From: a virus
Length of the DNA: 21,770 nucleotides
Reading direction: 5' to 3' (one strand)
Virus genome (UHGV): UHGV-1845973
The notes below the pieces were generated by a model. The model ran no database searches, was not told where the DNA came from, and saw only the letters and a program-made list of their open reading frames with translations. The translations under genes and the position numbers were made by a program. This document shows, one piece after another, positions 13-7,884 of the stretch; positions within the stretch are counted from its first letter, which is position 1, and each line of letters opens with the position of its first letter.

Positions 13-969
13 TTAACCGATTGCTTTCAGGCCATGAACAAGAGCAAGTTGCGGGTCATCCGCCACGAAGAAACGGTCATCACGAATATTAACTTGCTCG
101 CGAATTGCATCTGCCACCAGCGGTGCGCCACCACCGATCACCATGACATGCGTATATCCTTTAAAGTCGCCAATCACATCAAGAACGCGGGTACGCAGAC
201 GGTCAATGCTTGCGGCAATGGCCTTTTTCACATCACCAATCGCTGATGGGTCATTGATATTGTCGTTCAGATAATCTTCATCGTGGCGGTTAATAATGAG
301 CTGATCAACATTGTAATTGGACGTTTCGGTATTGGCTCTGGCAAGTGCTTGCCTTACTTCCCTGGTAACCAGAGAGACGCCAAGATTCGAATCGCCAAAA
401 ACACGGGAAACTGCCGTCATTTGCCCGGCGACCATTGAAACATCAAGGGTAGTTCCACCCAAATCGACGATAAGAACAGAATGGGCAGGGTTCAGATTGT
501 CGCACAGGCCAATTCCTGCCGGAATAGACTCCGGTCGTACCGTAACTTTCTTAATCGTGAACACATTGCCTTTATTCAACGTGACGGGGCGCATAAGACT
601 GGATTTCTTGCGCTCGATGTTATCGAGATTGTATTGCGCGTCGTCGTCGTAAAACTCCGCCAGAGGCAGCGTGACCACAATTTCTACTTCCTGCGGCTCA
701 ATGCCACTTGTCAGCAGGGCATGGTGAACAGCCAGGACGTTAAGCGGGCTGTATTGCCATTCCACGTTATTCGTCGGCAGAACATCTGGCGAGATCAAAT
801 CATACGAATACTTTTCGTCGTCAATGACATAGTTAAACGGCTTGCCAGCACAAAATGTTGCTGACCATCCGCGCTTAAAGCTGTTAGGGCTGATGTGAGT
901 GCGAGTTTCCCCGTCGTGCTCCCACAGCATTTTGATATTGGTTGAACCATCATCGATAAAAATGCGCAT
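13..969 (-). CDS. parM: ParM-type actin-like plasmid segregation ATPase (type II partition)
   Basis: The translation MRIFIDDGSTNIK...HISPNSFKRGW...VAVHHALLTSG...IVDLGGTTLDVS...GDSNLGVSLVT...THVMVIGGGA aligns along its whole length with R1 ParM/StbA as I recall it, including the actin-fold phosphate and adenosine motifs. I prefer the ATG at 969, which has GGAG 7 nt upstream, over the GTG at 993 used by the ORF track. On the minus strand, positions 12..4 read GAGGTATG, which looks like the start of a downstream parR that runs off the window. Confidence 0.9.
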   Translation of the reverse strand: MRIFIDDGSTNIKMLWEHDGETRTHISPNSFKRGWSATFCAGKPFNYVIDDEKYSYDLISPDVLPTNNVEWQYSPLNVLAVHHALLTSGIEPQEVEIVVTLPLAEFYDDDAQYNLDNIERKKSSLMRPVTLNKGNVFTIKKVTVRPESIPAGIGLCDNLNPAHSVLIVDLGGTTLDVSMVAGQMTAVSRVFGDSNLGVSLVTREVRQALARANTETSNYNVDQLIINRHDEDYLNDNINDPSAIGDVKKAIAASIDRLRTRVLDVIGDFKGYTHVMVIGGGAPLVADAIREQVNIRDDRFFVADDPQLALVHGLKAIG

Positions 970-996
970 CTTCTTGCTCCACTTCTGAGACACATT

Positions 997-1150
997 TGAG
1001 AATCAAAATGCAATTTTAAAAGAGAAGCACCCAAAAATCCACACCAAAAGAGATAATAAAGAGTGATTATTGAGTTCATTTTGAGAATATCTTAATCACC
1101 CAATGAATGATGGTCTGACAGTGAGATTTATTTGAGGATGAATTGAGAAT
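997..1150. promoter_or_regulatory. Candidate parC-like centromere and promoter region upstream of parM
   Basis: (T/G)TGAG(A/T/G)-type repeats have TGAG cores at 1071 and 1082 (11 bp apart) and at 1122, 1133 and 1144 (11 bp apart). A further copy lies at 997. TTGAGAAT occurs exactly three times. R1 parC is built from 11-bp repeats flanking the par promoter. Confidence 0.35.
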
Positions 1151-1190
1151 ACAAAAATATTCCGAAATTTTACTCTCAGTTTGAATGACG

Positions 1191-1211
1191 AAATAACAAA
1201 GTGATGACAAT
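1191..1211 (+). promoter_or_regulatory. Candidate -35-less (late-type) promoter: AAATAACAAA-N5-GACAAT
   Basis: One of three copies of the same architecture; the others are at 3965 and 20058. It lies 25 nt upstream of the PAAR gene ATG, and a strong AGGAGG follows it. Confidence 0.45.
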
Positions 1212-1235
1212 AGGAGGATAACCAGGAGGTGAAGA

Positions 1236-1520
1236 ATGAGCGCAATAGCCACCAGCGACACCCTTTGTTCTGGTCACGGAGGATTTCCGCCGCGACTGGT
1301 AGCTGAAACTGTTCCCTGGTTCACCGTTAACGGTAAGCCAATTGTTGTAGATGGTGCCATGTTTCCCAGTCACACTGACGGTAACAGTGCACATCCAGGG
1401 GCAGCTGTATCGACGCGAGTATGGTTTTCGATAGGTGGAAAGGGAGTTGTCTGTGTAGGCGATCCGCTTTCTTGTGGTTCTGTTATCGCCAACGGCGAGG
1501 ATATTTTTCAGGTTGCATAA
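1236..1520 (+). CDS. PAAR-domain spike-tip protein
   Basis: The 94-aa product has the PAAR-like layout: CSGHGG, TVNGKPIVVDG, SHTDGNSAHPGA, IGGKGVVCVGDPLSCG. This three-fold pattern of beta-strand plus Gly/His/Cys matches T6SS and phage PAAR proteins. A strong SD (AGGAGG) precedes the ATG. Confidence 0.8.
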   Translation: MSAIATSDTLCSGHGGFPPRLVAETVPWFTVNGKPIVVDGAMFPSHTDGNSAHPGAAVSTRVWFSIGGKGVVCVGDPLSCGSVIANGEDIFQVA

Positions 1521-2326
1521 TGCTTGATTCAATAGGTGAAGTTAAAGCCTTCAAAATTCTGTCAGATGCCGGTATCTCTACACCAGAATCTATAACCATA
1601 AGCCGGGCAGCGTCTGTAAAAGCCTCATCACTCGCCAGCGCCATACAGGGAATAGTTCACGCCGATAAAACCTATCCTGATTCTGTTTCGGCCTGGACTA
1701 CTCAATTGCTTGGCTTTTCTGAACAGCTAAATGAGGCCAGCAAAGCGTCTTCATTACTGGCTGATTCTCTTTCCCCATACACCAAGCCATCAGAGCTGTT
1801 ACAGATGAAGATTGGCTGGGAATGCTACGTAAAAGGTAACGAGCTGACCCCCATACCTGCTTTCGCCCTTGTTGAGGGGATGGGGAATGTTTCCATTCCG
1901 CAATCTCTAACGGACGCATTGACGGCGCTAAAACTTGATGCTCTGAAAACCGCCATGAACGCCATTAACGCAAAAATAGAAGCTGCCGGAAGTGCTGGTG
2001 GTGGTGATAGCAATGGTGGACAGGGTGGTACTGGGGGCGCTCAGGCTCCAGTCATTACTCAGGATGAAATTGATGCTTTACGGGAAGCAGTGACAGCCGC
2101 CGAAGTTTTACTCTCCGAAATTAACTCAGCAAGTGAGAGTGTCGTAGCCCTTACAGGTCGCATTAAAACGTCAACCACTCAGGCAACCAAAGGTTTAGAA
2201 AACGCTGTCGCCATCACGTTAACTGGTTCTCTACTGGATGATGCAGTAATGAGTCCGGCAATCAGTTTAATCATGCCACAAGGCGTTATCGATGCGCTCC
2301 AAAAGAACACCAAAAAGGAACAATAG
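1520..2326 (+). CDS. Hypothetical protein (268 aa), translationally coupled to the PAAR gene
   Basis: The ATG at 1520 overlaps the PAAR stop (TAATG). The ORF-track start at 1421 would overlap the PAAR gene by 100 nt and is unlikely. The protein looks helical, has a central Gly-rich linker (GSAGGGDSNGGQGGTGG) and no TM segment. I recognise no family. Confidence 0.6.
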   Translation: MLDSIGEVKAFKILSDAGISTPESITISRAASVKASSLASAIQGIVHADKTYPDSVSAWTTQLLGFSEQLNEASKASSLLADSLSPYTKPSELLQMKIGWECYVKGNELTPIPAFALVEGMGNVSIPQSLTDALTALKLDALKTAMNAINAKIEAAGSAGGGDSNGGQGGTGGAQAPVITQDEIDALREAVTAAEVLLSEINSASESVVALTGRIKTSTTQATKGLENAVAITLTGSLLDDAVMSPAISLIMPQGVIDALQKNTKKEQ

Positions 2327-3483: not shown

Positions 3484-3918
3484 TCATTGTCGCCATGCAT
3501 TTTTTAACTCAGGAATATCTGCCATTTCAATTAACTTGCGAAGTCCAGCACTGACTTTCCCATTGCCAACCATAGCAAGCCAATCTCTTACAGCTTTCGG
3601 CATGTAGAGCGTTGCAGTTACCGGCTCTTCAACCCTGGCAGGACATCCGCATACAGGCCATTTAATTGACTCCATAACTTCGGATGCCGGGGTGAGGGCG
3701 GGGACATTGAGTATATCTCTACCAGAAAACTGGATAACGATCCGTTCAGCGAGCGAGAGTATCTCACTTTCGGCAAGAATTGATGCCAACTGCGCCTCAA
3801 CAAGAAAGCGACTTGTTGTGTTCAGAGAGTGGCTCTTAGCGCCATTTTTATACGAAACAAAGATTCGATACGCCATAACTCTAATGATTTGTGTTAGAAA
3901 ACTAAAATTAAACCACAT
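3484..3918 (-). CDS. Hypothetical protein with C-terminal ribbon-helix-helix (Arc/MetJ-like) DNA-binding domain
   Basis: The C-terminus TATLYMPKAVRDWLAMVGNGKVSAGLRKLIEMA fits the RHH beta-alphaA-alphaB pattern seen in Arc and Mnt. The N-terminal domain of about 85 aa is unassigned. The start is either ATG 3918 or ATG 3876 (MAYRIF...). A TAAAAT -10-like hexamer lies on the minus strand at 3949..3944. Confidence 0.5.
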   Translation of the reverse strand: MWFNFSFLTQIIRVMAYRIFVSYKNGAKSHSLNTTSRFLVEAQLASILAESEILSLAERIVIQFSGRDILNVPALTPASEVMESIKWPVCGCPARVEEPVTATLYMPKAVRDWLAMVGNGKVSAGLRKLIEMADIPELKNAWRQ

Positions 3919-4034: not shown

Positions 4035-5732
4035 GTGAATAAAAACATTCAGCCAGCTCGTGATCGCGAGCGCGAGATTATGAATCGGGCGGCAAGCGTC
4101 ATGGCTATGACCGTCGATCCGACCACCGATGCAGCAGGCAACATGATTGCTGACCAGGCAGTAATGATGGAAAACCTGGATAAAGCAATCCAGAAAGTGC
4201 CTATGTTTGAAGGCGTAAATCCAGAGGTCGCTCGTCAGATCACTGGTGGGTGGGCTATGTCTCTGCATGAGTATAAACGTCAACATGGTCATTACCCGGC
4301 AAGTGACATCCTGGCGAACGCACACATGGCTCTTGAACGCCTAATGACTGAATGTGCCAGTGATACCCACGAAGGCACGGGTAAGGCAATGTTTGAGTCT
4401 GTCGCGCAATCAATGCGTAGCTCTGACGGCGTAATGAAAGTTGCTCAATATGCTGCTCTAATTCTGCCTGCCTCTCTGGGCGCTGCTACCAGTGATGCCT
4501 GTACTTTTGTTCCTTGTGATCGTGACGAGTCAAATATTTATGAACTGGTCAACGTAGCAGGCACAAAATTCGGCACCTTCAAACAAGGTGACGAACTGAA
4601 TATGCAGTCAGCTGGTGTTTATTCTCAAATGAAGCGCCTGTATACCCTTTCCACTAAAGGGGATGGCAGCACCAAAACCTTCCAGTTCGACATCCAAAAT
4701 TTTGAGGGACAATCCTGCCCGCTTCGCGCTGGTTATAGCAAACTGCTGATCAACCGCAAACCGTCCAAAGTTGACGACGGCGATGGCAACCTTTATTTCA
4801 ATGCTAAAGACAGCAAAGGTAAAGCTTTCTCAGCGACTGCCAAAGTCGCCTATGACACTGGTGTCATTGACATTACATTTACCCAGGCTCCGCCAGAAGG
4901 TACTGAAATTGCTGTTCAGGTCGAAATTAACATCGAGCGCAATCCAAGCCTGATTCCTGTGATCAACCAGGCTATGCGTAAGTACGAAGTTCGTCCGTCC
5001 CAGTACGTAATTGCTTCCGAACACACGGTAATGTCCGCATCCGATTTAAGCCGTGAGCACGGCCTTGAATTAGCGGCACTTCAGTTCTCCGCGATGCGTA
5101 ACTGGATCTCCCATGAAACCGACATCATGCGTCTGCGCACCCTGGTATTCCATACCGTTTATGGTCGTGAATTTGATGTGGCTCTGCCGGAAGCTCAAAA
5201 CTATGAGTCCTGGGTCGGCCTCCTGCGTCACGTAGTAAACGCTCTGTCTCAAGAAATGGCAAATCGTACCCTGACAACGGGTATTCGTGGCGGCTTTGCT
5301 GGTGGTGACGCCGCGAACTTCCTGCGCTCTCTGCCTCCACAGCACTTCCAGATCGCACCAGGTTACGTTCAGTCGCCGTATGTACAGTACATCGGCACCC
5401 TGTTTGGCACGATTCGTATTTACGAAGTGCCGCAACCTGTCTGTGAGCAATTCCAGGCACAGGGATATGACTTCGGGCTGGATGACATCTTCTTCTATGG
5501 GCGTGGCGAAGGCATCGGTAAAGCCGGTCTGATTGCTGGTGATGCAGTCCCAGCAATCCCTTACGTGCACGAAACCAATCCGTCTCTCGTTAACCGTACC
5601 ACTCTCTGGGGCAGTGCCATCAACGAAGTACATCCTCGCAACGGTGAAAACTACTTCACCCGCCTGCGTCTGACTCGCGCCAAAGAAGGTGCTATCGACA
5701 TGCTGACAGGCAAGGTTAACGAAAAAAAGTGA
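4035..5732 (+). CDS. Putative major capsid protein precursor (P1 gp23-like, about 62 kDa)
   Basis: It is the first gene of the structural block, followed by an Ig-like decoration-type ORF and the sheath gene. Codon usage looks strongly biased toward high expression (CGT, CTG, GGT, GAA). The size matches my recollection of the P1 gene 23 product. The GTG start at 4035 is uncertain. The function is assigned from synteny and memory, not from a recognised motif. Confidence 0.55.
   Translation: MNKNIQPARDREREIMNRAASVMAMTVDPTTDAAGNMIADQAVMMENLDKAIQKVPMFEGVNPEVARQITGGWAMSLHEYKRQHGHYPASDILANAHMALERLMTECASDTHEGTGKAMFESVAQSMRSSDGVMKVAQYAALILPASLGAATSDACTFVPCDRDESNIYELVNVAGTKFGTFKQGDELNMQSAGVYSQMKRLYTLSTKGDGSTKTFQFDIQNFEGQSCPLRAGYSKLLINRKPSKVDDGDGNLYFNAKDSKGKAFSATAKVAYDTGVIDITFTQAPPEGTEIAVQVEINIERNPSLIPVINQAMRKYEVRPSQYVIASEHTVMSASDLSREHGLELAALQFSAMRNWISHETDIMRLRTLVFHTVYGREFDVALPEAQNYESWVGLLRHVVNALSQEMANRTLTTGIRGGFAGGDAANFLRSLPPQHFQIAPGYVQSPYVQYIGTLFGTIRIYEVPQPVCEQFQAQGYDFGLDDIFFYGRGEGIGKAGLIAGDAVPAIPYVHETNPSLVNRTTLWGSAINEVHPRNGENYFTRLRLTRAKEGAIDMLTGKVNEKK
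5723..5729 (+). promoter_or_regulatory. Candidate -1 programmed ribosomal frameshift heptamer A_AAA_AAG
   Basis: The zero-frame codons are GAA AAA AAG TGA, so the heptamer is in the correct phase one codon before the capsid stop. The -1 frame stays open for 35 more codons, to the TAA at 5834..5836. Confidence 0.3.
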
Positions 5733-5845
5733 TGGTGGCGAACGTGTCGGTATCACCAACGTCACTTGACGTAGATGAAGGTGAAACTATCGCCGCGAAC
5801 ACTTCAAAGGCACAGAAAAAAACAAAGCAGAAGTAAGGCAAAAAC

Positions 5846-5866
5846 ACGCCCCTGATTAAGGGGCGT
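5846..5866 (+). terminator. GC-rich hairpin downstream of the capsid gene (8-bp perfect stem, 5-nt loop)
   Basis: ACGCCCCT-gatta-AGGGGCGT. No U-tract follows; the SD of the next gene does. It may be a partial terminator or an mRNA-stabilising element. Confidence 0.35.
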
Positions 5867-5879
5867 TCAGGAGAAAAGA

Positions 5880-6158
5880 ATGGCAAACATTCAAGTAACT
5901 ATCACGCCATCTGACGCAACAGACAAATCTTTCACTGTTGAGTCAGATCACCCTGAAATTGTCCGGGTTGATGGCACTACATGTACCGCTCTTAAGGCCG
6001 GGCAGGCAGTGCTGACAATCAAAACAAATGACGGCAATAAAACCGCACAGTGCACAGTCACTGTTAGGGAGGCACATAAAAGCGTAAGCACCGTCAGTGT
6101 TGAACCAACTACGAAAGAAGTAACCGTAGGCGATAACTTCACGGTAAGCCAATCCTGA
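5880..6158 (+). CDS. Bacterial Ig-like (Big_2-type) domain protein, probable head or tail decoration
   Basis: IQVTITPSDATDKSFTVESDHPEIVRVDGTTCTALKAGQAVLTIKTNDGNKTAQCTVTV has the Big_2 pattern (...V...G.v.al..G.a.it..t.dG....c.vtV). The C-terminus VSVEPTTKEVTVGDNFTV looks like the first strands of a second, truncated domain. Confidence 0.7.
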   Translation: MANIQVTITPSDATDKSFTVESDHPEIVRVDGTTCTALKAGQAVLTIKTNDGNKTAQCTVTVREAHKSVSTVSVEPTTKEVTVGDNFTVSQS

Positions 6159-6225: not shown

Positions 6226-7884
6226 ATGAATAAGATTAGTTTTTCGGTAGGGCAGGCAGCTGGCGTTGCTGTAATGTCAGTAAATGCTGACGCTACCCTC
6301 ACCAATACCAGCGGTGGCGCATCCGTCTTTGCTGGGCTTGTAATATCGCGTCGTGGCGCACCGGGTAAGGTACTGAAAGTTGACGATACGACTTATCAAA
6401 GCGTATTAGGTTCACCGATTCACCCTCGCCAGGGCGCGGCATTTGAACCATATCGCCACGTGGAGCGTGCAGTAAAAGGCGGCTCTGGATATGTCGTTCG
6501 AGTTTGCGCTAAAGACATGAAGGTGCCGGGTATTTCTGTTTCCGTTGTGGGCAAAGCAAAAGCGGCAAAGGCGAGCAAAGAACTTTCCGTTGAACCTACT
6601 GAAACCACAGTAAATCCAGGTGACACATTAAGCGTTGGTGTTGCTTCAACTGCAACGACTCAATCAGTGACCTTCACACCCAAAGAGACGCCCCAGATTA
6701 AAGGTGAAGAGAAGGCATTATTCTTCATCAAAGATGGTGATGCATCTCAAAATCGCACGTTATCACTAACTCGCGATGATGAAGAAAGCGAACTCTTTAC
6801 GCTGACGCTGAAAGAAAAACAAACCGATGGGTCCATTGAGGTGCTGGAAAGCCACCAAGTGTCTTTCAATCCAGAAGGCACCAACGACATGGGCCAACCA
6901 GCATGGATTCCGACACTGCTTGAAAGCCAGTCCACTCGCATTGGTGCCGTACTGGCAGATAATGCAGAAGCATCCGCTGCTCAACTCATTTTTGAGGATG
7001 TAGCTTTTGAAGGTGGTACTGATGGAAATCTGTCCGAAATTAACGCTGCAGACTATCTGGAAGCATTAAAGGTTCTCGAAGCTTCAGAGGTTAATTACAC
7101 CGCATTGCTGTCACTGGGTTGTTATGACGCATCCGCCTTAGCCGCAATCAAAAAGCTGGCTGAAGATGTTCGCGTAGACATGTTCTATGACCTGAAGGGC
7201 AACCAGACACCTGAAAACGCTATTTCAGAAGCGAAAAGCCATAGTTTTGGCGGCTCACATCAACCAAGCCGTTACTACTTCCCGCTCTCCTGCCGAGATA
7301 CCTTCACTGGGATGAATGTCGTCTATGGCATTAGTTGCGACGCATTCGTAGCAAAAGCAAAAGGGGTAGCGCTGGTACCGGATGTTGGTGGTTGGCATTA
7401 CGCACCGGCAGGTATATCACGCGCGATTATTGATCGACAGAACATTGCCCGAATTCCAAATATCGGTGCAGTTGATCGTGAAGCGTTCGTTCTTGCGCGC
7501 ATTAATCCGGTTTCAGTTGCTGCTGATGGGTCCGTTTACATTGACGACTCTTTAACAACTTACAGCAAAAACAACTATCTGCGATTCCAGCATGTGTCTT
7601 CCTTGATGAACGCCATCGCCAGAGATTTCTATGAAGTAGCTCAGGCGATTAAGCACGAACCGGATGGCATTACCAAAGAAACGCTAATGAAAGCAATGAC
7701 TGAATTGCTTGACCGTTACGTTGCAGCCGGTGCGCTGGTTACTCCACGTGACAAGTCCCAGGGTGAAGATCCATACGTTGTTCAGGTTGTCCAAAAGGAC
7801 ATCGATCTGTGGGAAGTGTCCTGGTCTGTTTGTCCGACCGGTACAGCTCGCCGAATCGTCGGTAAGCCAATTCTGATGCGCTGA
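6226..7884 (+). CDS. Contractile tail sheath protein
   Basis: The C-terminal half shows the usual sheath pattern: GGWHYAPAGISRAII...REAFVLARINPVSVAADGSVYIDDSLTT...YLRFQHVSSLMNAIARD...LDRYVAAGALV. This corresponds to the PAG, INP, wG and R.l..i motifs of the P2 FI / T4 gp18 C-domain family. The N-terminal part carries an Ig-like insertion (LSVEPTETTVNPGDTLSVGV). Confidence 0.7.
   Translation: MNKISFSVGQAAGVAVMSVNADATLTNTSGGASVFAGLVISRRGAPGKVLKVDDTTYQSVLGSPIHPRQGAAFEPYRHVERAVKGGSGYVVRVCAKDMKVPGISVSVVGKAKAAKASKELSVEPTETTVNPGDTLSVGVASTATTQSVTFTPKETPQIKGEEKALFFIKDGDASQNRTLSLTRDDEESELFTLTLKEKQTDGSIEVLESHQVSFNPEGTNDMGQPAWIPTLLESQSTRIGAVLADNAEASAAQLIFEDVAFEGGTDGNLSEINAADYLEALKVLEASEVNYTALLSLGCYDASALAAIKKLAEDVRVDMFYDLKGNQTPENAISEAKSHSFGGSHQPSRYYFPLSCRDTFTGMNVVYGISCDAFVAKAKGVALVPDVGGWHYAPAGISRAIIDRQNIARIPNIGAVDREAFVLARINPVSVAADGSVYIDDSLTTYSKNNYLRFQHVSSLMNAIARDFYEVAQAIKHEPDGITKETLMKAMTELLDRYVAAGALVTPRDKSQGEDPYVVQVVQKDIDLWEVSWSVCPTGTARRIVGKPILMR

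Follow-up and report, generated by a model that had tools for sequence, protein, structure and literature searches.

Frameshift-derived C-terminal extensions of major capsid proteins have been described in phage T3, where the extension is immunoglobulin (Ig)-like, as well as in T7, the Lactobacillus phage A2 and the Listeria phages A118, A500 and PSA; among related phages, frameshifted and in-frame Ig-like extensions interchange (PMC5009743). The heptamer A_AAA_AAG, the site used in dnaX, is the most shift-prone heptamer in E. coli (PMC5009743). Here we describe a related arrangement in the virus genome UHGV-1845973, a stretch of 21,770 nucleotides (nt) that is referred to below as the window and of which positions 4,035 to 5,845 are shown. 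The major capsid gene in this window ends in A_AAA_AAG, and our analysis suggests that a -1 frameshift at this site may make a minor capsid isoform whose short tail completes a separately encoded, truncated Ig-like protein in trans and anchors it to the capsid. We give this reading a probability of roughly 0.6.

The region shares 99.3% identity with Escherichia phage D6, which is a P1-like plasmid prophage, and at this locus 100% identity with E. coli plasmid NZ_CP035876.1. Judged by these identities, the window is a phage D6-like plasmid prophage. The capsid gene corresponds to D6 orf51, which is annotated in GenBank as major capsid protein, 'similar to P1 gene 23', and its product matches the solved P1 Gp23 (PDB 9ukm, 9vl4) over residues 4-560 with an E value of 1.5e-164. 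The protein that would carry the extension is thus a virion structural protein by homology to P1 Gp23 (9ukm; PMC12810830). The P1 capsid has T=13 symmetry with 775 copies of gp23, which adopts an HK97-like fold and loses a 124-residue N-terminal region on maturation (PMC12810830).

D6-like phage-plasmids are common in enterobacteria. PLSDB has 123 plasmids with the region (Escherichia, Salmonella, Shigella, Enterobacter), and of 5426 complete E. coli genomes 83 contain it, plasmid-borne in every case. The GenBank record of D6 (MF356679) lists the -1 frame as a separate gene, orf50, for a free hypothetical protein of 34 amino acids (5732..5836), followed by orf49 (5880..6158), which RefSeq names an Ig-domain structural protein. 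RefSeq plasmid records annotate no feature over the -1 frame, and a frameshift annotation is absent from all public records inspected for positions 5640..5900 of the window.

A dnaX-type heptamer at the end of the capsid gene

In the frame of the capsid open reading frame (ORF; 4035..5732), positions 5721-5732 read GAA AAA AAG TGA, which confirms the original prediction of a heptamer in the phase needed for tandem -1 slippage. Its placement one codon before the capsid stop was loosely right: AAG is the final sense codon, and the TGA (5730..5732) adjoins the heptamer directly on its 3' side. The -1 frame is closed upstream by a TAA (5717..5719) and overlaps the zero frame by three codons, with the heptamer inside. 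Its translation from 5729 to 5836 (VMVANVSVSPTSLDVDEGETIAANTSKAQKKTKQK, then stop) is identical to the 35-codon reading predicted earlier. The string AAAAAAG is itself not unusual in the window (12 copies against 8.4 +/- 2.9 expected); the copy at 5723..5729 is the sole one in phase within a long ORF and followed by a sizeable -1 extension.

Relatives were gathered from plasmids, GTDB genomes, IMG/VR and metagenome assemblies, and the 3' ends of all their capsid genes were classified. This comparison of orthologues, which had been proposed as a check on the site, shows both the in-phase heptamer and the -1 ORF to be conserved in nine sequence-distinct lineages (37 loci) whose capsid proteins are 69-100% identical to that of the window. 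The heptamer is kept while the proportion of synonymous differences (pS) at the capsid 3' end is 0.44-0.66, and the distance from the heptamer to the zero-frame stop is 0 or 2 codons in all nine lineages. The surroundings of the site vary (Table 1). The preceding codon may be GAA, GGA or GCA, the stop may be TGA, TAA or TAG, and the zero-frame peptides ending at the stop differ by lineage (NEKK, GKKSQ, EKKSE, GDEKK, GDAKK). The run of A is 7 long in five lineages and 6 long in the other four (GGA or GCA AAA AAG); because of these four, it is the phased heptamer with its final G that counts as the conserved unit rather than a homopolymer. One locus, L009 (Salmonella pSa1423-160k, NZ_MK356558.1), has a shorter A-run and was set aside, since its record contains many homopolymer indels. 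These indels occur across the capsid region, in which the capsid gene is unannotated, and are most likely assembly errors.

The -1 frame is open in all variants of the D6 clade. The ratio of nonsynonymous to synonymous substitution rates (dN/dS) within this clade is 0.22-0.56 in the -1 frame against 0.54-4.85 in the other two frames, in a test whose power is modest because the ORF is short; the -1 frame is under purifying selection and the other two frames are not. A homologous tail also occurs in the zero frame, in P0012 (capsid 74% identical), P0013 (69%) and L115. An example of such an in-frame tail, ...TGQVNGTSGTVVEGVTLSPASITVSAGDEITAGNTKKDS before the stop, aligns without gaps with the capsid end ...TGKVNEKK of the window continued across the shift by VMVANVSVSPTSLDVDEGETIAANTSKAQKK, and the truncation point of the tail is identical in frameshift and in-frame lineages. 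These comparative data support the earlier proposal that a subset of capsid subunits acquires a short, Ig-like C-terminus through a dnaX-type -1 frameshift, and they indicate that the tail is very probably made as a capsid fusion by recoding.

RNA structures that could stimulate the shift differ between lineages. No strong downstream hairpin had been seen at first, a view that did not hold: the 71 nt after the D6 heptamer fold to a minimum free energy of -25.1 kcal/mol (z -3.0 or -2.7 in two analyses), with a stem of 7 base pairs (bp) separated from the heptamer by a spacer of 5 nt. The corresponding fold in L003 reaches -23.0 kcal/mol (z -3.0 to -3.3) and that in L113 has a z of -3.3, with spacers of 5-7 nt in the D6 clade and L113; among 27 control windows taken from the capsid gene, a z of -2.5 or below occurs only once. 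Both arms of the stem are invariant, including synonymous sites, in 14 distinct D6-clade sequences in which the loop and the upstream capsid codons vary, a pattern that fits a constraint on the RNA. Different hairpins, 9-10 nt downstream, are found in L032 and L008 (z -1.6 to -2.3 in two analyses). Upstream of the heptamer, a Shine-Dalgarno (SD)-like site with a duplex energy of -6 kcal/mol or better is present in 5 of the 9 lineages, against 10% of control windows, at varying spacing. A stop codon directly 3' of a slippery site, the 'shifty stop' of Weiss et al. 1987, is also said to favour slippage. In PMC5009743 that term appears only in a reference entry and in an unrelated passage on yeast.

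A second frameshift may have arisen elsewhere in the family. The capsid genes of two Rosenbergiella plasmid prophages, L013 (4195..4201) and L079, end in G_GGA_AAG TGA with the heptamer in phase, followed by a conserved 72-codon -1 ORF rich in Ala, Gln, Asp and Lys that resembles the in-frame tails of L081 and P0024. To judge from these features, this looks like an independent capsid frameshift. With A_AAA_AAG and G_GGA_AAG at one position, the family of capsid genes therefore makes use of at least two classical bacterial heptamers.

An Ig-like domain divided between two genes

The first 21 residues of the extension follow the pattern V.V.GVSV.P......V.VG[DE].[IF]. The original prediction had recognized in them (VSVSPTSLDVDEGETI) the first strands of a Big_2 domain, and this is borne out by a permutation test against intact domains, which was used in place of a Pfam score-gain test. 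In gapless BLOSUM62 scoring against strands A/A' taken from intact Big_2 domains, those fused in frame to the capsids of the Serratia/Erwinia-type relatives P0046, P0047, P0059, P0062 and P0063, the tails of eight lineages reach z values of 4.6-6.0; no shuffle out of 5000 equals them, and reversed sequences are negative. The window's own segment (5735..5791) has a z of 4.7. On its own, the extension has no Pfam hit; it corresponds approximately to positions 1-21 of the 79 in the Big_2 hidden Markov model (HMM) and is not a complete Ig-like domain. The basic end that follows is kept in most lineages and missing in L008 and L113, where the A/A' motif and its spacing are nevertheless retained. 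Within the -1 ORF there is a further run of 7 A (5818..5824), in which L041 carries an indel (…AQKKQSRSKAKTRP, then stop); the basic end seems tolerant of change because this indel rewrites only that part.

The rest of the domain is found in the next gene. The product of orf49 matches Pfam Big_2 (PF02368) with an E value of 2.6e-8 and 34.1 bits (cut-off 22.8), over HMM positions 22-79 only, and the Ig proteins of five other lineages start at position 22 or 23. Coverage of the full model is reached in none of these six lineages, and orf49 is a Big_2 member by score that lacks strands A and A'. The split falls at the A'/B junction: the A/A' part of the capsid tail ends in ...GETI and the Ig protein begins with M-A-N-IQVTITPSDATDK. 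When the tail is joined to orf49, the Big_2 match grows from positions 22-79 to 2-79 and from 34.1 to 43.5 bits. The suggestion that the extension might be a remnant thus has to be given up: it is not decaying, its truncated form is conserved and the remaining part of the domain is encoded by the following gene. A ribosomal hop from the tail to orf49, for which the AACTATC present in both was considered, was rejected from the sequence: its product would lose strand B, the hop would have to span about 109 nt, and other lineages do not retain the repeat.

The Ig protein also carries a second copy of the missing strands. The C-terminal segment of D6 orf49 has a z of 6.1 against intact A/A' strands and of 4.6 against the capsid tail. 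The 91-96-residue Ig proteins of all lineages end in such an A/A'-like segment and then stop; the z values of these segments are 4.2-6.9 in the comparison with intact A/A' strands and 3.2-5.8 in that with the same lineage's capsid tail. The AlphaFold2 (AF2) model of orf49 from a 19-sequence alignment, with a mean predicted local distance difference test score (pLDDT) of 91, has core strands at residues 18-22, 28-31, 34-37, 41-49 and 55-62. This core can be superposed on Big_2 domains of known structure (57-60 residues, 1.0 Å), and the model matches the Ig-like domain of lambda gpV (2l04) over 58 residues. Residues 63-92 are predicted with a pLDDT of 80-95 per 10-residue block (92 for 71-80 and 95 for 81-90) and form no intramolecular ladder in this monomer model. 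A model from a 12-sequence alignment has a pLDDT of 64 and an ambiguous C-terminus.

Partial tail and truncated Ig gene occur together without exception. A partial A/A' tail is present in 42 of the 42 loci that have an Ig gene lacking strand A (37 via the heptamer and 5 in frame) and in 0 of the 72 loci without such a gene. The tails in these 72 loci are unrelated and of low complexity in 64, complete in-frame Big_2 domains in 6 and the other -1 ORF of Rosenbergiella in 2. These counts come from a classification by regular expressions in which four misses were corrected by eye. In Serratia/Erwinia-type relatives (L017-L019, L084, L085, L091) the capsid protein of 650-674 amino acids includes one complete in-frame Big_2 domain and there is no separate Ig gene; as far as sequence allows a judgement, this capsid-fused domain corresponds, without the split, to what is seen in the window.

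These observations can be combined into a mechanism. Most ribosomes would terminate the capsid protein at the TGA at 5730, and a minority would slip by -1 on A_AAA_AAG (5723..5729), where the single tRNA-Lys of E. coli would re-pair from AAG to AAA, probably aided by the adjacent stop codon and, in the D6 clade, by the stem-loop 5 nt downstream. Shifted ribosomes would add 35 residues and yield a minor capsid isoform about 3.7 kDa larger, with a predicted trans-frame peptide of K followed across the shift by VMVANVSVSPTSLDVDEGETIAANTSK and predicted junction sequences ...GKVNEKKVMVAN... and ...KKVMVANVSVSPTSLD. Residues 1-21 of the addition would provide the A/A' strand pair of a Big_2 Ig-like fold; by inserting into the open domain of orf49 in donor-strand complementation, like a natural tag and catcher, the tail would act as a docking peg that anchors orf49 to the frameshifted capsid subunits. 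In the lineages with an in-frame tail, every capsid subunit would bear such a peg. Without strong stimulators, A_AAA_AAG directs a shift of a few per cent in E. coli; applied to about 775 subunits, this would give an estimated tens of tailed subunits per capsid. At the level of sequence, an incomplete Ig fold and a matching strand on another polypeptide are both present, and we regard the pairing of tail and Ig protein in trans as an evenly balanced proposition.

The spare A/A' segment of orf49 could in turn take on a further copy of orf49, so that a short non-covalent chain might form. More tentatively, and with the odds somewhat against it, the split Ig domain may assemble by donor-strand exchange on the virus exterior, with the frameshifted tail as initiator and each Ig subunit accepting and donating one strand, so that one small gene would suffice for a whole chain of Ig domains. 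The frameshift frequency would then set the number of chains per capsid. Two Ig genes lacking strand A follow the frameshift tail in L113 (3330..3536 and 3593..3868), of which the first (68 amino acids) comprises strands B-G only and the other (91 amino acids) strands B-G plus A/A'. As the 68-residue protein has no spare A/A', donors and acceptors are equal in L113, two each, and this protein could be a chain end; in a chain such a subunit would act as the cap.

Between the extension and the Ig gene lies a G+C-rich hairpin (Table 1) of -15.9 kcal/mol (z -3.5), which is kept in all lineages with substitutions on both arms. On the plus strand it looks more like a protector of the mRNA 3' end or an attenuator than a terminator, because its T-run is on the minus strand only. 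In relatives without the Ig gene (L010-L028) a hairpin of this type directly follows the capsid stop, between the capsid and sheath genes; in the window, the sheath gene starts at 6226, after orf49. In the metagenomic relative L032, a gene for an IS605 OrfB / Cas12f-like TnpB (461..1546) lies a few genes 5' of the capsid gene.

Table 1. Features of the capsid-Ig region of the window and slippery sites of the related lineages
Feature	Position	Strand	Details
Major capsid protein gene (D6 orf51)	4035..5732	+	Zero frame, 565 amino acids; ORF and translation
Slippery heptamer A_AAA_AAG	5723..5729	+	In X_XXY_YYZ phase with the capsid frame; read from sequence
-1 frame extension	5729..5836	+	35 codons, then TAA 5834..5836
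A/A'-equivalent segment, encoding VANVSVSPTSLDVDEGETI	5735..5791	+	Match to Big_2 strands A/A'
Lys-rich end of extension, AANTSKAQKKTKQK	5792..5833	+	Translation
Candidate stimulatory stem-loop	5735..5796	+	Outer stem GUGGCGA (5735-5741) with UCGCCGC (5790-5796), 7 bp
G+C-rich hairpin	5846..5866	+	Between extension stop and ribosome-binding site of Ig gene (AGGAG 5869-5873)
Ig-like protein gene (D6 orf49)	5880..6158	+	92 amino acids; Big_2 from strand B, without A/A'
Second A/A' copy, KSVSTVSVEPTTKEVTVGDNF	6078..6140	+	C-terminal segment of orf49, no domain after it
Site in D6 lineage			GAA AAA AAG TGA or TAA
Site in L003 type and L005 type			...AAG TAG
Site in L116			GCA AAA AAG TAG
Site in L113			GAA AAA AAG TAA
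Site in L031 and L032			GGA AAA AAG TCC SAG TAA
Site in L008			GAA AAA AAG TCG GAG TAA
Site in L114			GCA AAA AAG TCC GAG TAA

Trans completion weighed against its alternatives

Several points weigh against the proposed frameshift and completion in trans. Many of the 42 loci that combine tail and truncated Ig gene are near-identical plasmids, and the independent evidence amounts to roughly a dozen lineages. The arms of the D6 stem are invariant and thus offer no covariation by which to test it; L031, L114 and L116 show no downstream structure (z -0.8 to +0.1). A single stimulatory structure common to all lineages was rejected, as the alifold consensus across lineages is only -4.65 kcal/mol. 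The gain in Pfam score from adding the tail to the Ig protein is +5 to +9 bits against +4 bits for a reversed-tail control, and the tail of L008 adds no score; the HMM gain is therefore weak by itself. Finally, the monomer AF2 models do not discriminate between a groove of orf49 filled in cis by its own C-terminal segment and one filled in trans.

The alternative that survives best, although unlikely, accepts the frameshift and denies the completion. The tail would have a role of its own, such as that of a flexible basic C-terminus carried by a few subunits, and the Ig protein would make good its missing strands by itself, either in cis or through strand swapping in a dimer or oligomer, and attach to the capsid in some other way. 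The shallow-alignment AF2 monomer of orf49, in which residues 78-82 and 86-91 are strands of moderate confidence, is in keeping with this, as are the dimeric and octameric crystal forms of the Big_2 domains that match orf49 best in structure, and the retention of the basic stretch in most lineages. A tail that acts alone does not, however, account for its strict association with the truncated Ig gene, nor for the persistence of the Big_2 A/A' motif and spacing where the basic end has been lost (L008, L113). Self-completion is opposed by the deeper-alignment model, with no intramolecular ladder in the C-terminal 30 residues, and by the length of the linker: only six residues (REAHKS, 63-68) separate strand G (55-62) from the A/A'-like VSTVSVEP that begins at 69, which, from the geometry of the Ig fold, would be short to reach back.

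The remaining alternatives concern the origin of the tail rather than its partner. If the slippage were transcriptional, RNA polymerase would insert an extra A into the A-run, and normal reading of the edited mRNA would give the same capsid-plus-tail protein. At known sites of productive transcriptional slippage the run comprises some 9 or more identical bases; that of D6 (5722..5728) comprises 7 A, and a conserved homopolymer of about 9 or more is not found. Productive transcriptional realignment at slippage-prone runs is established, for example in Thermus dnaX (PMC5009743), and the two routes yield an identical protein, so that sequence cannot separate them. What is conserved, however, is the in-phase heptamer ending in G and not a long run, and the six-A runs of four lineages therefore favour ribosomal over transcriptional slippage. 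The adjacent stop, the stem-loop at a spacing of 5 nt and the SD-like sites also fit ribosomal signals. We consider the transcriptional route improbable and ribosomal recoding the probable one.

The annotation of orf50 as a gene of its own in GenBank implies a restart at an ATG (5732..5734) that overlaps the capsid stop (TGATG) and a free 34-residue peptide. This ATG is present in D6 and in TAA variants; relatives with a TAG stop all lack it (they read GTA GCA GTG), and yet keep the ORF and its first residues. The extension of L008 contains no ATG, GTG or TTG anywhere, and those of L031 and L114 have no start codon before codon 16-17, so that no start is conserved and the A/A' peptide of these three lineages can be reached only from the capsid frame. 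In addition, there is no SD-like sequence between heptamer and ATG, the capsid proteins of P0012 and P0013 include the homologous peptide covalently, and RefSeq has no gene here. An independent orf50 is therefore very improbable. Equally remote is the view that nothing is expressed, with the heptamer a chance Lys-Lys pair and the -1 ORF a dead remnant of a once-fused Ig domain: AAAAAAG is not rare in the window, the extension is too short for a domain and relatives with a complete in-frame Big_2 could represent the ancestral state, but the ORF is open with a dN/dS below 1 and unconstrained alternative frames, the heptamer outlasts the divergence of synonymous sites, the truncation point is shared by frameshift and in-frame lineages, and the co-occurrence with the truncated Ig gene is perfect.

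Comparison with known systems

The arrangement proposed here resembles gene 10 of T3 and T7 (10A/10B) and the capsid genes of A2 and of A118, A500 and PSA, where, owing to a shift near the 3' end of the capsid gene, virions contain a minor capsid protein with a longer C-terminus. The extensions of T3 and A2 are Ig-like and arise by a -1 shift, as proposed for the D6-like capsid, and the D6-like family interchanges in-frame and frameshifted tails as the known capsid systems do. Unlike in these phages, the D6-like extension consists of A/A' only (about 21 residues) plus a basic end, with the remainder of the domain a separate gene product, and the heptamer is of the dnaX type with the zero-frame stop directly after it.

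The site itself is identical to the A_AAA_AAG of E. coli dnaX (tau/gamma), which likewise relies on a single tRNA-Lys; a stem-loop 5-6 nt downstream, here a candidate one, and possibly SD-like sites upstream would be further points in common (PMC5009743). In E. coli dnaX the shifted product is shorter and made at about 1:1, whereas the D6-like shifted product is longer and presumably minor, and the candidate stimulators here are weaker and lineage-specific. The dnaX genes of some bacteria are closer in this respect: their stop adjoins the shift site, and it is the shift that yields the longer product, as proposed here. The G_GGA_AAG of the Rosenbergiella capsid relatives is the heptamer of lambda G/GT; the lambda product is a tail chaperone whereas L013 and L079 extend a capsid protein with a different extension, and this site is not in the window. 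The same C-terminal module made by frameshift or in frame, and two classical heptamers at one position, provide a clean natural series for the study of frameshift evolution.

Ig-like domains on phage structural proteins reportedly form a class (Fraser et al. 2006). The C-terminal domain of lambda gpV and T4 Hoc place a Big_2-type domain on a virion structural protein, as do the capsids P0046, P0047, P0059, P0062 and P0063. Unlike in gpV and Hoc, the D6-like domain is split over two polypeptides at A'/B, and the Ig protein has an extra, orphan A/A'. If the split domain works as proposed, it would represent a novel means of attaching Ig-like decoration proteins to a capsid, and possibly of polymerising them there, with a copy number set by translation, and it would offer a small natural peptide-and-domain pair, of the tag-and-catcher kind, usable for phage display.

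The principle of an Ig-like fold that lacks a strand and is completed by another polypeptide is that of chaperone-usher pili and of SpyTag/SpyCatcher, and it may apply here as well. As in pili, head-to-tail polymerisation would be open to a subunit that has both groove and spare strand, and the groove-only subunit of L113 resembles a terminator. Neither system is related in sequence to the D6-like one, in which an N-terminal A/A' pair rather than strand G is missing, no chaperone or usher is present and isopeptide chemistry is not evident. Literature searches on donor-strand or strand-exchange attachment of phage Ig decoration proteins returned nothing relevant; within the range of these searches, the chain, if true, would be a pilus-like assembly principle not described before for phage decoration proteins. 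Thus, the predicted frameshift itself is a further case of the known class of capsid extensions, one not annotated in the public records inspected, and it is two other features that are without a match in the known cases: the extension is a fragment of a domain, and the rest of that domain is a separate protein with a spare copy of the same fragment.

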